Below are positions 9,124 through 63,455 of a stretch of 64,000 bases of DNA, piece by piece (position 1 is the stretch's first letter; each line of letters opens with the position of its first letter). The DNA is from a virus, in the IMG/VR virus record IMGVR_UViG_3300036832_000775, positions 8,949 to 72,948 of that record, one strand, 5' to 3'. Made by a program: the position numbers and the translations under genes. Below the pieces are notes generated by a model, which had not been told where the DNA came from, ran no database searches, and saw nothing but the letters and a program-made list of their open reading frames with translations.

Positions 9124-9149
9124 GGAGGTGTCCTACAGGAGTCGAACCC

Positions 9150-9497
9150 GTGAACATCACGCTATCCGTCCTCGCCGCGCTGATCATCTTCAGCTGGCTC
9201 CAGAACCCATTTGTTGAGCGGCTGATTGCAGTCGCCGGGCTCGGCGCCCTCGCGCTAGCCGCGATCTTCTTTGTCGGAGCGCTCGGCACGATGGGCCCGC
9301 CGCAACCGGAACAGGTCATGCGGCCGATGCCGCCGGGGTTCGCCGAACGCATGACAGTCGTCATCTATATTGTTCTCCTCCTGTATTCGGCGGCCATTTG
9401 GGGCCTCATCGCGGTTGTCCGGAAGGTCCAGCGCCGCCGACAACAGCGGACGCCAACGGCCCTGACCCCGCGACAAGGCTATTCTCTACGCCCCTAA
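9150..9497 (+). CDS. Counter-oriented 3-TM membrane moron
   Basis: GTG start after GGAGTCGAA RBS; three hydrophobic segments; own promoter. Confidence 0.7.
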   Translation: MNITLSVLAALIIFSWLQNPFVERLIAVAGLGALALAAIFFVGALGTMGPPQPEQVMRPMPPGFAERMTVVIYIVLLLYSAAIWGLIAVVRKVQRRRQQRTPTALTPRQGYSLRP

Positions 9498-11529
9498 GCG
9501 CCCTCATTAGCATCGGCCTCGACGCGACATGGTTCAGGATCTCGTTGACCTTATTGGGGTCTCCCGAGCTCAGATTCTTCGCGATGAAATTTGCAATCTC
9601 CGGGTTCGCCCCAGCCTTGATCAGCGCCTGGTTGTAGAGATGCCCGACGACCGCTGCGCCAGCCCCAACCATGGCGCCGACATGGGAACCCCCAGTCAGC
9701 TCACGGCCGGTAATCGCGTAGTCCCGCATGTTCCGGCCGAGCTCACCCAGCTGTGACCCGCCCCCCTCCTTCGCCGCATCAGCCCATTGCTGCACGGTCG
9801 ACGAGTTGCGCATGACCGCATTGTTCGACAGGTTCATCGCACTTTCCCAGCGCAGCGAGGCCTCGACTTTCGCCGCTCCGAGCGGGCCAAAGGCAGTCTG
9901 AAATTTCTGCCGCGTCAGCGGATCGTTGAACTGACTGAGGAGGTCCCGGCTGTCGTTCGTCGAGAGCGATTTCCCCTTGACCGCCGCAGCCATGCCGCGC
10001 GTGAACTCCGCCTTTTCGGCCTGGCTCATATTGCCGAGCGCCGCATTCATGTCGTCGAGCTTCTTGCCCGGGGGCGTCTTCAGATAGTTGAGGCCGGCGT
10101 CGAGGGCGTTCTCAGCGTTGAAGCCTTCATAGGCGCCCTGCCGCGCCGTCTTGAACGCCGGGACTGCAGTGTCCAGCTCGCTGGTTAGCGCCCGCTTGAA
10201 CGTGTTCCAGTCTTTCGCGCCCTCCTTGTTGCCGCTGCCGATCGCAGTCTCTTCCGCGCCCTGAAGCGAGCGCCTCACCTGATCCCAGTACATCAGGTCA
10301 GGAGGCTTTGCCGTGGGGTCGAGAGAGACCTTTCCAGTTTTCGGATCGACGCTGAATGGGTTCTTGGGCTGCTGCTGCCCGCTCAGCGCCGCATAGTTTT
10401 CGGCTTTCGCCTGCGCGTCTTTGAGCACGCTGCGGAACTGAGGCGCCTCCATGAGTTGTTGCATGCCAGGGGTCCAGAGCGATTGGCCGGCCGGGTCGGA
10501 GTAGGCTTTGGTGTAGTTCGTGAGATTATTGGCGCGGGCATTGCGCAAGATCGAGTCGCGGGCGGTTGCCGTATCGAGGCCTGTCGCGCCGCCGAAGGTC
10601 TGATCCATGAGGTCGGCCATGCGCTCGTTCTGCTTGTTGGCGCGCGCCATCACGGTGTTCTGAAGGATGTCTCGCGCATCCGGCGAAAGGTTTGCGGTTG
10701 CACGCGCGAGCGCCTTCGTTGGGCCGCCACCGAGGTCCATGGCCGTGACAGGATAGCCAGCCTGGCGCGCGGCCTCCCAGTCTTGCTGGGGAGTGATGCC
10801 CTGGTCGCCAAACCCGCCGCGCTCTTTTTCGACATCGGGTTGCAGCGACTCGGCCGTGCGGTTCATCGCCTTCTGTTCAGGCGAGAGCCAGCGCTCACTG
10901 AGGTTTCGGATGCCTTGCGCGGCGCCGTGAAAGACGCCGCCAAAGAAGCCGCCGCCAATCCCGCTCTCGATCGCGTTCTTCGCCCGCTCCTCCGGGGTCC
11001 AGCCTTCGCCAGCTCCGGAGCCCGCGCCCCAGAGCGAGCCGATGCCGATCGATTTCGCCAGCGTTGGGACTTTCGGGCCGAACGCCGCACCAAATGGTGC
11101 GCCGGCCGCAAGCGCCGAGCCGTAGTAGATGCCTGGATGCTGGCGCGCGCTCTCACCAGACAGGAGGTCGAGCCACTTCTTGTTCTCTTCGTAGCGCTCG
11201 CCGAATGTGCCGGTCTGTTCTTCCGATGGCAGCGCCGCGGTGCCGAGCGCCGCGATGTCTGGGCCGAACGGGAGGACATGCATGGCGCCCGTGCCGGCCG
11301 CCGTCCAACCTGAGACAGGCGCGTCTTCTTCGCCGGTTTGGCTATGCGCCGGCTCCTCTCTCACGCTTCCTTTCGGCGCTACAGCCTGCGAGGGCGCCGA
11401 TGGGGTAGCCCCTGTCGGGCTCCAGCCTGGGCCGGTGAAGCTCCAGAACGATCCAGGCTCACCGGCCGGCGCAGGCGCCTGCGTTGTGTCCTGATGCTCA
11501 TCGTTATCTGGGGCTTCCAAGACAGCCAT
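9406..11529 (-). CDS. Internal virion / DNA ejection protein
   Basis: 707 aa, Ala/Gly-rich helical with glycine-zipper segments; follows the giant ejection protein. Confidence 0.75.
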   Translation of the reverse strand: MAVLEAPDNDEHQDTTQAPAPAGEPGSFWSFTGPGWSPTGATPSAPSQAVAPKGSVREEPAHSQTGEEDAPVSGWTAAGTGAMHVLPFGPDIAALGTAALPSEEQTGTFGERYEENKKWLDLLSGESARQHPGIYYGSALAAGAPFGAAFGPKVPTLAKSIGIGSLWGAGSGAGEGWTPEERAKNAIESGIGGGFFGGVFHGAAQGIRNLSERWLSPEQKAMNRTAESLQPDVEKERGGFGDQGITPQQDWEAARQAGYPVTAMDLGGGPTKALARATANLSPDARDILQNTVMARANKQNERMADLMDQTFGGATGLDTATARDSILRNARANNLTNYTKAYSDPAGQSLWTPGMQQLMEAPQFRSVLKDAQAKAENYAALSGQQQPKNPFSVDPKTGKVSLDPTAKPPDLMYWDQVRRSLQGAEETAIGSGNKEGAKDWNTFKRALTSELDTAVPAFKTARQGAYEGFNAENALDAGLNYLKTPPGKKLDDMNAALGNMSQAEKAEFTRGMAAAVKGKSLSTNDSRDLLSQFNDPLTRQKFQTAFGPLGAAKVEASLRWESAMNLSNNAVMRNSSTVQQWADAAKEGGGSQLGELGRNMRDYAITGRELTGGSHVGAMVGAGAAVVGHLYNQALIKAGANPEIANFIAKNLSSGDPNKVNEILNHVASRPMLMRALRGVENSLVAGSGPLASAVVGGAGPSGQPR

Positions 11530-11536
11530 GGCTCAC

Positions 11537-62983: not shown

Positions 62984-63379
62984 ATGCGTAAGAATATTGT
63001 TCGCATTCCTCCGCCGCTCGAGATCCTCCCGGCCGAAAGGGAACGGCCGACGGGGCTTCTCGACCATGTGAGCTTCTGCTTGGGGCAAGTTTGCGCCGAG
63101 GATGCGGAGGCGATGAAGCTCGCCAATACGGTCGATACGACCGACTCACAGACTGGGGGCTTCAAGGAAGACCGCCTCTTCCTCGCCCGTGCGATCAAGT
63201 TGTGGGCCGGCGAGCACGGCTACAACGACGTCGCGGCGGCCAAGGAGCGCGCGATCCGCAACAAGCTCGAGTGGGCGCTGCGCCGCCGCGACACGGCGGA
63301 GCTCCCAGTCTCGCGCAGGGCGCGCATCGCGCTCGCGGCCGCCAAGGAAGCTAACGGCCAGATCGAGAACGGCGGTTAA
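62984..63379 (+). CDS. Hypothetical protein
   Basis: 131 aa, GGGAG RBS, followed by a terminator. Confidence 0.7.
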   Translation: MRKNIVRIPPPLEILPAERERPTGLLDHVSFCLGQVCAEDAEAMKLANTVDTTDSQTGGFKEDRLFLARAIKLWAGEHGYNDVAAAKERAIRNKLEWALRRRDTAELPVSRRARIALAAAKEANGQIENGG

Positions 63380-63406
63380 GCCGCAGCTCACGGCAAAAGC
63401 CTGAAA

Positions 63407-63438
63407 GGCCGGGAGCCCTCCCCTCCCGGCCCTTTTTT
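63407..63438 (+). terminator. Intrinsic terminator
   Basis: GGCCGGGAG/CTCCCGGCC stem plus T6. Confidence 0.8.
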
Positions 63439-63455
63439 CGTGAGGAGTCGAATCG

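Follow-up and report, generated by a model that had tools for sequence, protein, structure and literature searches.

SAS and ESAS were described in 2011 in the cluster K mycobacteriophages (PMC3203893), and the function of SAS was still reported as unknown in 2025 (PMC12699233). The window analysed here (64,000 nt within a 72,948-nt viral record, 8,948 nt of which fall outside it) carries a short box that resembles SAS as published: both are asymmetric repeats with a Shine–Dalgarno (SD) core and conserved positions that are unable to pair with 16S rRNA, and both stand in one orientation close to starts (3–7 bp before them for SAS), mostly ATG, of non-structural genes only. The SAS-like arrangement (an SD-core repeat in a single orientation, 3–7 bp ahead of starts and restricted to non-structural genes) is found here as a likeness of working and not as homology. 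SAS is the 13-bp GGGATAGGAGCCC whereas the present box is the 8-bp GGAGTCGA, unrelated in sequence and from phages of a different host phylum. A search for GGGATAGGAGCCC with up to two departures gave three matches against 1.9 expected, none of them before a start. Both systems have an upstream inverted repeat in a subset of cases. ESAS are described as conserved imperfect 17-bp inverted-repeat arms around a variable spacer, with RNA pairing unsupported (PMC3203893), whereas in the present leaders it is the loop that is conserved, the arms varying and co-varying. A ribozyme is not reported in the published description of cluster K SAS/ESAS, in contrast to the hammerhead found at some of the present leaders. 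We regard the box as a second, independent case of start-associated sequences, unrelated in sequence to cluster K and carried by phages with alphaproteobacterial hints.

The other close precedent is the report of type II hammerheads clustered in prophages, where they flank single genes, and of alphaproteobacterial hammerheads that cleave in vitro, and also in vivo when cloned in E. coli (Perreault et al., 2011; PMC3088659). As described there, the prophage ribozymes and the present copies share a full core, closed stems I and III and a short open stem II, and both lie between genes of alphaproteobacterial phage DNA, where they flank single genes and number several per operon. The main text of that paper (supplements aside) contains no mention of Shine–Dalgarno sequences or ribosome binding, whereas here one invariant ribosome box is joined to every copy; moreover the 3′ strand of the present hammerheads doubles as an arm of the leader hairpin, and their scores lie under the Rfam threshold. 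This physical linkage of the box to self-cleaving ribozymes suggests a purpose for prophage hammerheads, namely the making of uniform, insulated leaders. In RiboJ-type synthetic insulators a hammerhead and then a hairpin are placed ahead of the ribosome site. The present leader is alike in that the ribozyme would strip away the upstream context and the hairpin would leave a defined ribosome site, and unlike in being natural, of type II topology and tied to a clade-specific box; it may be seen as a natural counterpart of the ribozyme insulators of synthetic biology.

New relative to the initial annotation of this DNA are the clade-wide occurrence of the box, the hammerhead at 56950–57006 and a reverse-complement element in recT. 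The relevant features are as follows.

1189–1196, + strand: in-frame GGAGTCGA in recT, encoding Gly-Val-Asp of GVDPETGE and not followed by a start codon
1228–1315, + strand: structured element in the recT linker, two predicted hairpins (folding and conservation)
9138–9145, + strand: box, 4 nt before GTG 9150; ORF 9150–9497, membrane-like, counter-oriented
38018–38025, + strand: box, 2 nt before ATG 38028; ORF to 38243; no CCTAC upstream
47796–47803, + strand: box, 4 nt before GTG 47808; ORF to 48068
55180–55219, + strand: leader of a PAPS-reductase-like gene (TTG 55222); hairpin 55180–55204, box 55212–55219
56058–56092, + strand: leader of a DpdA/TGT-like gene (ATG 56097); box 56085–56092
56950–57006, + strand: type II hammerhead ribozyme (Rfam RF02276, own model R1, covariation), cleavage predicted
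56995–57033, + strand: alternative or post-cleavage hairpin (56995–57016) and box (57026–57033); ATG 57036
57427–57461, + strand: leader; hairpin 57427–57446, box 57454–57461; ATG 57466
57649–57656, + strand: box, 3 nt before GTG 57660, inside the end of the upstream ORF; no CCTAC
62335–62344, − strand: variant box GGAGAGTCGA, 3 nt before the integrase start GTG 62331
63444–63451, + strand: box, 4 nt before ATG 63456, directly 3′ of a terminator-like hairpin (63407–63431 plus a T run)

There are 11 exact copies of GGAGTCGA in the window, ten on the + strand and one on the −, and none in the remaining 8,948 nt of the record. Over 100 shuffles the mean was 3.97 copies, and one shuffle reached 11. 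A start codon lies 2–4 nt downstream at nine of the ten + strand copies (GTG 9150, ATG 38028, GTG 47808, TTG 55222, ATG 56097, ATG 57036, ATG 57466, GTG 57660 and ATG 63456). The nine box positions given by the initial annotation are all correct, and the variant GGAGAGTCGAAACGTG that it placed before int at 62329–62344 (−) is present; two copies that it did not list, at 1189 (+) and 1238 (−), both fall within recT. The count of the motif at starts relative to background that it had proposed as a check bears out the link: a start with an ORF of at least 40 codons follows 9 of the 11 copies in the genome compared with 77 of 701 other GGAG (Fisher p = 1.7e-7), and no other GGAGNNNN word exceeds three. 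Its remark that the box was not seen before structural genes also holds, at 0 of 39 genes in the minus-strand block 9406–47651 as delimited by rough gene calls made in the present analysis. Box-led genes mostly have an untranslated gap upstream; overlapping, coupled genes have GGAGG, GGAGC or no clear site instead.

To follow the box across relatives we used a clade set of the present genome and nine relatives (L144–L152; 208,199 nt). A start with an ORF of at least 40 codons follows 55 of 64 copies of GGAGTCGA and 9 of 11 of AGAGTCGA, and other one-mismatch variants precede starts in at most 8 of 27 cases; positions U5, C6, G7 and A8 never vary. Among the 64 sites the spacer to the start is 4 nt at 32, 2 nt at 13, 3 nt at 8 and 5 nt at 7, and the start is ATG at 56. 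Whole records of five relatives contain 12–19 copies each with a strong strand bias (splits of 4/11, 1/13, 2/11, 3/9 and 4/15), and the reversed control word does not occur in these five. In 44 of the 64 sites the 60 nt upstream contain CCTA (0.083 expected per site), and in the other 20 they do not. At ribozyme-free sites it is found in 27 of 47, and in 24 of those 27 it belongs to a hairpin whose stem has 5 bp or more. On this distribution the box is shared by a whole clade of soil phages. The box together with the CCUA-loop hairpin is kept in every close relative examined, which supports the core of the earlier proposal, a shared post-transcriptional leader that is neither a chance likeness nor plain anti-SD pairing.

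Within the window, CCTAC lies within 40 nt upstream at six of the ten + strand boxes, and because the + strand of the 72,948 nt holds only 31 CCTAC in all, the chance of six or more such placements is 5e-9. Four hairpins with a CCUAC loop had been reported and all four fold as described, but that at 56995–57016 proves to be the 3′ part of the hammerhead. Taken in the order 55180, 56058, 56995 and 57427, the stems are of 9, 5, 4 (7 with one bulge) and 6 bp, the loops are UCCUACC, UCCUAC, CCCUACC and UAUCCUAC, and the gaps from CCUAC to GGAG are 17, 16, 17 and 13 nt. The 55180–55204 hairpin reads CGUCGGCUU-UCCUACC-AGGCCGGCG with a 17-nt spacer to the box, that at 56058 reads GGGCU-UCCUAC-AGCCC with an additional imperfect outer stem, and that at 57427 reads GGGCGG-UAUCCUAC-CCGCCC and lies downstream of a promoter-like TTGACA-N16-TAGCCT. 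A 4-bp stem around CCTAC is not rare by itself (30 of 89 CCTAC in the genome). A convincing hairpin is missing at three or four of the ten box-led genes: 38018, 57649 and 63444, and arguably 9138, where a TCCTAC is present directly upstream (9131–9136), as had been noted, but outside any hairpin loop. A GCCTAC lies 31 nt 5′ of the 47796 box (at 47760), within a weak hairpin. None of the leaders at 55180, 56058 and 57427 is a hammerhead; each has a plain hairpin that shows (G/U)CCUA(C) in its loop.

The segment 56950–57006, which begins on the stop codon of the upstream gene, is by its sequence a complete type II hammerhead. In order it contains GAAAC, a stem III hairpin (GCAA loop), GUC, a stem I hairpin (UAAGG loop) and CUGACGA, with GGGC/GCCC as stem II and a predicted cut after C56977. 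Stem II is open and stems I and III are loop-closed, which is the type II topology, and the core (C3 U4 G5 A6 N7 G8 A9, G12 A13 A14, the A15.1–U16.1 pair and H17) is present as CUGACGA, GAAA, an A-U pair and GUC. Default Rfam scans gave no match; RF02276 aligns over its full length at 56952–57009 with 30.4 bits (E 0.0017), below its gathering score of 37, as do full-length matches at four sites in L144 (21.2–28.1 bits). Our own model, R1, gives 69.4 bits at the window copy. Across 19 aligned copies no core nucleotide varies, pairing is kept in 97.5% of 323 cells and 14 of 17 pairs show compensatory change, a result reached by none of 500 shuffles. Relatives each carry one to five ribozymes, all of them followed by the box, and in the window the only one is at the 56950–57006 junction. 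The box is 3′ of the ribozyme in 17 of 17 close-clade copies, 4–19 nt after GCCUA, and two further ribozymes in record G010, outside the seed alignment, have it 5 and 16 nt downstream. Type II hammerheads commonly, though not obligatorily, form a pseudoknot between loop I and the 3′ tail. Judged by eye, some copies could pair there (UUUGG/CCAA, UGAUG/CGUCA) and others would do so only imperfectly, including the window copy (UAAGG with CCCUA). The CCUAC at 56995–57016 consists of stem II plus the tail of the ribozyme, and the alternative hairpin CUG-A-CGAG/CCCUACC/CUCG-CAG re-uses the core strand. By eye, the free core position N7 is in every case compatible with its downstream partner in this hairpin: where N7 is C the partner is G in six of six copies, and where N7 is U it is A in five and G in three, the arm being absent in three. 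At least five uninterrupted bp are available in only 9 of 17 ribozyme leaders.

From these results we think it probable, by a fair margin, that box-led genes share a standardised, ribozyme-insulated leader that would give each of them the same insulated, 5′-protected start. The box GGAGUCGA, generally (G/A)GAGUCGA, would be a clade-specific start-associated element composed of the SD core GGAG and a fixed extension, placed 2–5 nt before non-structural genes (those that open operons, those in inserted cassettes, small ones in counter-orientation, and int), and with the upstream hairpin presenting (G/U)CCUA(C) in its loop it would form one standard 5′ leader. Behind promoters the primary transcript would begin with this hairpin or close to it. 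At junctions between cistrons the type II hammerhead would cut the polycistronic RNA, leaving on the downstream mRNA a 5′-OH, the stem I hairpin and then the hairpin that re-uses CUGAYGAG with the CCUA loop. The likely effect would be translation from the same insulated and protected leader whatever stands upstream. The analysis shows the sequence features, their retention throughout the clade and the ribozyme core with its covarying stems; self-cleavage, the transcript 5′ ends, the effect on stability and translation and the early timing of the genes are what we infer from sequence. Insulation alone leaves the invariance of U5, C6, G7 and A8 and the identity of the CCUA loop unexplained.

A search for an RNA holding both GUAGG and UCGACUCC, proposed in the initial annotation, ends at exactly one place, the recT element, where the structure is conserved and the loops change to match the leaders. 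Its hairpin 2 (1228–1251) has the loop UGAUCGACUC containing UCGACUCC (1238–1245), the exact complement of the box, and its long hairpin (1259–1315) has the apical loop GGUAGGAU (1285–1292), complementary to AUCCUACC. Antisense RNAs such as P1/P7 c4 (on ant) and OxyS (on fhlA) use two short loop contacts, one of them on the ribosome site. Like these, the recT element presents two apical loops that match two short target blocks by complementarity. One of the blocks is the ribosome-binding site, and the two follow each other in the antiparallel order needed for pairing. The element is unlike them in lying inside a protein-coding gene, in having about ten unlinked mRNA targets and in being predicted from sequence.

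An extension of the insulated-leader reading, which we put forward tentatively, is that recT mRNA, or a piece cut from it, displays UCGACUCC and GGUAGGAU and reads the leaders, pairing in each leader with both the box and the CCUAC loop through loop–loop kissing and ribosome-site occlusion, so that all box-led genes would be shut off together when the recT operon is expressed and the UCGA extension would supply a regulator specificity that 16S rRNA does not need. The recT copy is the sole reverse complement of the box in the 72,948-nt genome, and a two-site search on both strands (at least 6 nt complementary to loop 1, then at least 6 nt to loop 2 within 5–60 nt) found, besides the antisense of the element itself, six places, all six being leaders before starts. 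Nine of 13 close relatives have an exact TCGACTCC with (G/A)TAGG further on (ATAGG in L229), the other four having one or two mismatches; GACUCC is invariant in 10 of 10 aligned relatives, and TCGACTCC is also exact in recT of three relatives at 44–51% identity, although in that clade the long-hairpin loop lacks GUAGG. The nucleotides are kept across a change of frame (Ile-Asp-Ser and Gly-Arg here, Ser-Thr-Pro and Val-Gly in relatives), but Ser-Thr-Pro is a recurring peptide in relatives, so conservation may partly be at the protein level. RNAalifold gives 22 pairs on the sense strand with compensatory change in six, and 13 G-U cells (A-C mismatches on the other strand) against three of the opposite kind. 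The base before CCUA is U in four of six leaders here, where the anti-loop is GUAGGA; of 35 cases in relatives, 33 have G at this position and none has U, and the anti-loop there is (G/A)UAGGC in 9 of 9 aligned (leader-base difference, Fisher p = 1.5e-4), although such co-variation represents roughly a single evolutionary event. The relatives also have GUAGGCGCC complementary over 9 nt to GGCGCCUAC of promoter-proximal leaders. On the other side, a search around the element found no flanking promoter or terminator, the element lies within a translated ORF where ribosomes would repeatedly unfold it, a crude ranking by duplex energy did not set the leaders apart, and the element could be an inverted leader copy kept for another reason, in which case the complementarity would come by descent. 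It is quite possible that recT hides a trans-acting anti-leader whose UCGACUCC and GUAGG(A/C) loops address about ten dispersed mRNAs, one RNA silencing a whole gene class. If so, the purpose of the invariant UCGA extension and of the CCUA loop would be to give recT RNA its grip, hammerhead cutting would give every cistron the same addressable leader, and similar reasoning could account for the single reverse-oriented SAS copy reported from several cluster K mycobacteriophages; with a single complementary element whose loops change alongside the leaders, the identity of the box reader becomes a simple swap question.

A reader in the form of a phage or host RNA-binding protein that recognises the CCUA loop and/or GGAGUCGA, perhaps like T4 RegA, a translational repressor, or T4 RegB, a nuclease that cuts in the Shine–Dalgarno sequence, seems to us unlikely. 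Stems that vary around a constant loop usually point to loop-specific recognition, the box does not vary at positions unable to pair in register with 16S rRNA (judged against the usual bacterial 3′ end), and such a protein could be hidden among the early ORFs, most of which are without known family; but Pfam and/or PHROGs comparison of 43 distinct ORF products (about 99 in total) found no RNA-binding protein or nuclease, and a protein leaves the conserved complementary recT element unexplained. We are equally doubtful that there is no reader and that the box is the preferred strong ribosome site of the clade, copied with leader cassettes and kept for translation efficiency, with GGAG and the final GA pairing to 16S rRNA across a 2-nt internal mismatch and the hairpins only protecting 5′ ends. 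Position and spacing are indeed those of a Shine–Dalgarno sequence, and the predominance of ATG (56 of 64), the untranslated gaps before box-led genes and the other sites at coupled genes fit as well. Such a view does not account for eight positions that are invariant at 55 sites while their flanks are free to vary, nor for GGAGAGUCGA, in which GGAG shifts while AGUCGA holds its distance to the start, nor for the CCUA loop, which is equally conserved yet has no ribosome-pairing role. The recombination handle also raised in the initial annotation (a shared leader as short homology for swapping cassettes between related phages) finds little support and is very improbable: the same leader does head different genes in different relatives, and the PAPS-reductase-like and DpdA-like cassette lies here between the early promoter region and the first gene of the relatives, each of its two genes with its own leader, but homologous exchange would have very little to work with in 8 bases and a 5-base loop, strict orientation and a start distance of 2–5 nt are properties of translation, and the ribozyme stems co-vary, which implies selection at the RNA level. 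Least credible of all is a DNA-level signal acting through methylation. GAGTC and TCGA do overlap inside the box, and GANTC is the CcrM site of alphaproteobacteria, an enzyme that the probable host group of the phage has; yet GANTC shows no depletion or enrichment (182 sites against about 202 expected), TCGA is frequent (627 sites against 564 expected), and the box is strand-specific whereas both sites are palindromic in the sense relevant to methylation.

The forward copy of GGAGTCGA in recT, at 1189, is absent from L229 (which has GYH at that place) and from three of three more distant relatives and is kept in all nine closer relatives encoding GVD (10 aligned), and we regard it as probably a by-product of the protein motif.

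The eight-letter box GGAGTCGA is present in 11 copies in the window (3.97 expected) and in 0 copies in the rest of the record. The initial annotation had placed it just before start codons at positions that proved correct: 9 of the 10 plus-strand copies lie 2–4 nt from ATG, GTG or TTG, and the variant box at int is present as described. When the motif at starts was checked against background, 9 of the 11 copies in the genome were followed by a start codon with an ORF of 40 or more codons versus 77 of 701 other GGAG sequences (p = 1.7e-7). CCTAC, also reported upstream, lies within 40 nt ahead of the box at 6/10 plus-strand copies, the plus strand carrying just 31 CCTAC in total (p = 5e-9), and the four hairpins proposed there fold as stated. 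The claim that structural genes lack the box was likewise borne out, as it precedes none of the 39 called genes in the virion and lysis block (9406–47651). Genes without it, mostly overlapping their neighbour, have GGAGG, GGAGC or no clear site. The record is 72,948 bp long, is rated 93% complete and is 63% G+C; our own rough self-trained gene call gave about 98 genes, of which PHROGs and Pfam name those below.

Genes in the window named from PHROGs and Pfam
364–1665, plus strand: RecT-like protein
42428–45238, minus strand: portal
49718–50425, minus strand: protein with sigma-70 region 4, adjoining the terminase block
51301–52944, minus strand: large terminase
55222–56031: PAPS-reductase-like protein
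56097–56951: DpdA/queuine-transglycosylase-like protein
61090–62331, minus strand: tyrosine integrase, beside a tRNA-Tyr gene
Tail proteins

The sigma-70 region 4 protein may drive late transcription. At recT, GGAGTTGA (364–372) sits two bases before ATG 374, so the gene probably starts at this ATG and not at the TTG at 364; the exact box precedes recT in some relatives (L227, L235 and L433).

Close relatives were found with the terminase as IMG/VR contigs of 81–86% identity, and nine of these loci together with this genome make up 208 kb. In this set GGAGTCGA is followed by a start codon and ORF at 55/64 sites and the one-letter variant AGAGTCGA, usually as GGAGAGTCGA, at 9/11; half of the 64 sites have a box-to-start spacer of 4 nt, and 56 use ATG. 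Five whole records carry 12–19 copies each, 9–15 of them on one strand, and the reversed control word is absent from all five. In the variant box the GGAG is displaced by two bases while the distance from AGUCGA to the start is unchanged, and therefore the extension is positioned relative to the start codon, not to rRNA pairing. The box is a real, clade-wide feature. Near and distant DNA searches of phage databases gave no relative; the only match, which was weak, was to Pseudomonas phages at the PAPS-reductase-like gene, and an IMG/VR scan for TCCTAC-N12–18-GGAGTCGA gave single matches, with at most two copies before starts per locus among the matches listed. The DpdA-like gene was tried as a guide to the clade and rejected: its relatives (16 loci of 55–75% identity, two in Roseiarcus) have no box before it, five whole records of theirs have 0–6 copies without strand bias, and the gene is a mobile cassette.

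Among 47 ribozyme-free box sites CCTA lies within 60 nt in 27, and in 24 of these a hairpin with 5 bp or more contains it. The stems vary by site while the loops are CCUA, GCCUA, CGCCUA(A) or UCCUAC(C), and this constancy of the loops despite changing stems speaks for recognition at the RNA level. No hammerhead core is present at 55180, 56058 or 57427, the positions of these leaders in the window, according to our own model (described below). Hairpins of this kind in the relatives come after a promoter-like TTGAC-N17-TATAT, often ahead of a U-rich run; as a promoter consensus scan found none, we infer a promoter here from this arrangement. Pairing of the phage tRNA-Tyr anticodon loop (CUGUAAA) with the loop UAC was rejected (only 3 nt pair), as was a methylation reading of GANTC and TCGA (no skew), and no RNA-binding protein was named among 43 distinct ORF products searched with Pfam and/or PHROGs.

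Intercistronic leaders of the relatives run as follows: AAGGCGAAAC, a hairpin, GUC, a second hairpin, CUGAYGAGCCUA, 4–19 nt and then GGAGUCGA. Judged from its sequence, such a leader is a complete type II hammerhead. The Rfam Hammerhead_II model matched window positions 56952–57009 end to end (30.4 bits, E 0.0017 in that search) and four sites in the close relative L144 at 21–28 bits. At gathering thresholds Rfam reported only tRNAs; none of the hammerhead scores reaches the gathering score of 37, which is why the default scans had missed them. In our own alignment of 19 copies all catalytic nucleotides are invariant, 97.5% of stem cells are paired and 14/17 pairs show compensatory change; none of the shuffled or slid controls came near these covariation values. 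Run over 1.10 Mb comprising the window and related loci, a model built from this alignment recovered all 19 seeds together with a new copy in the distant relative L211 and one weak match; the window has exactly one copy (56950–57006). Whole records carry 1–3 hammerheads each, including two absent from the seed, both followed by the box. Core, topology and covariation place the predicted ribozyme in the type II hammerhead class, although it falls below the Rfam score. It starts on the DpdA-like gene's stop codon, and cutting is predicted after C56977. Distant terminase relatives also have type II hammerheads.

Type II hammerheads in distant terminase relatives
L154, 241–299, minus strand
L169, 2993–3069, minus strand
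L211, 1661–1724, minus strand

These three have other stem II sequences (GGAC/GUCC, GGUC/GACC). Downstream of those in L154 and L169, the two inspected, there is no GGAGTCGA, and L154 has an ordinary GGAA site instead, so the ribozyme is older than the box.

One of the four hairpins of the initial annotation (56995–57016) overlaps the window ribozyme. Its fold stands, but the CCUAC at 57004 is stem II (GCCC) plus the tail of the hammerhead, and the hairpin is an alternative fold taking up the core strand CUGACGAG again. Comparison by eye of core position N7 with its downstream partner in 17 close-clade copies showed C with G in 6/6, and U with A in five, with G in three and with no arm in three; since N7 always fits its partner, this suggests that the refolded hairpin is itself selected, although by strict count only 9/17 copies have at least five uninterrupted pairs in it. 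The standard leader thus seems to have two origins, one straight from a promoter and the other through ribozyme cleavage. Such a scheme agrees with Perreault et al. (2011; PMC3088659), who found clusters of type II hammerheads flanking single genes in prophages and proposed that long phage RNAs are processed. The PAPS-reductase-like and DpdA-like genes form a two-gene cassette (55222–56951), which in this phage separates the early control region from what is the first gene in the relatives, and whose own relatives are in unrelated phages and Roseiarcus genomes. The pairing of these two genes suggests 7-deazaguanine modification of DNA. A leader made by a hammerhead also resembles synthetic ribozyme insulators.

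A search for an RNA complementary to both leader blocks, a check proposed in the initial annotation, led to recT. The sole minus-strand box copy (1238–1245) is preceded on that strand by a CCUAC hairpin of its own and is not followed by a start codon, here or in relatives. Read on the recT mRNA sense strand, hairpin 2 (1228–1251) has UCGACUCC in and beside its loop and a long hairpin (1259–1315) has the apical loop GGUAGGAU. This arrangement is kept in recT of 13 relatives (64–77% identity), with TCGACTCC exact in nine and carrying 1–2 mismatches in four, and GACUCC invariant in the 10 aligned; in three relatives at 44–51% identity a hairpin also carries TCGACTCC, and the long GC hairpin after it lacks GUAGG in the loop. 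The element keeps its bases in spite of a changed peptide and a shifted reading frame. Its consensus fold has 22 pairs, six with compensatory change, and 13 G–U cells support the sense strand versus three favouring the other. The base before CCUA is U in 4/6 leaders of this phage, where the anti-loop is GUAGGA, and G in 33/35 leaders of the relatives, where it is (G/A)UAGGC in 9/9 aligned. A two-block target search of the whole genome found only six leaders and the element's own antisense. The element had no match in Rfam and a pattern scan gave one true copy among the matches listed. Ranking by duplex energy against 99 leaders put the box leaders at 1, 5, 7, 13, 14, 27, 35, 50, 75 and 85, and is uninformative because GC-rich sequences pair everywhere. 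The top of the anti-loop hairpin, GGGGTAGGATCCC (1283–1295), is within two mismatches of the start-associated sequence (SAS) consensus of cluster K mycobacteriophages, a likeness treated as chance (three such matches, 1.9 expected).

The recT element is a concrete candidate for the missing reader of the leader. It has the form expected of an antisense regulator making two loop contacts, and it may, though we hold this tentatively, be one; if so, the box being fixed beyond rRNA pairing would be accounted for. Against an antisense role, the element lies within a translated gene, its complementarity could descend from an inverted leader, the co-variation with the leaders amounts to about one event, and its conservation may be partly at the peptide level. 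A hammerhead acting in trans to cut GGAGUC within the box was also considered.

In way of working the closest known system is SAS/ESAS of cluster K (PMC3203893). Both combine a Shine–Dalgarno core with extra conserved bases 3–7 bp before starts, are confined to non-structural genes in one orientation, and have a repeat upstream of some sites as well as a lone reverse copy. However, the box sequence is unrelated and the ESAS arms behave otherwise, so the box is an analogue and not a member. Among the matches listed, literature searches gave no phage study of the box and no description of a hammerhead fused to a fixed ribosome site, although supplements to published work may list related hammerheads. 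The feature is explained in part by a known ribozyme class and is partly a new form of the start-associated-sequence phenomenon.

The only sequencing runs listed as containing the sequence are two of soil DNA, one of which may be its source, no RNA run being among them, and the relatives of one cassette gene (DpdA-like) in Roseiarcus genomes hint at an alphaproteobacterial host. A gap of 35 nt separates the end of the integrase gene from a complete tRNA-Tyr (GTA) gene (60972–61055, plus strand), which could serve as the attachment site or be a phage tRNA; in two relatives, too, a tRNA is found close to the terminase. A stretch of about 1.1 kb (53444–54568) that separates a minus-strand ORF from the early block has no confidently called gene, marked G/C skew and no Rfam match; within it GATCCTAAGC is repeated three times in tandem (54524–54553, the last copy ending in T) immediately 5′ of the ribosome site that serves an ORF of 62 codons at 54569. 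GGGACA/TGTCCC boxes, which look like operators, are repeated at 54995–55090 upstream of TATAAT at 55101, and also occur ahead of the first early gene in the close relatives L144 and L148–L150. TTGCA(A/C)NT/GTGCAAAT boxes flank promoter-like sequences of counter-oriented small genes (9085–9125, 37965–38015 and 47765–47790), and TTGCA repeats of a similar kind are found in relatives, for example upstream of position 15185 in L144.
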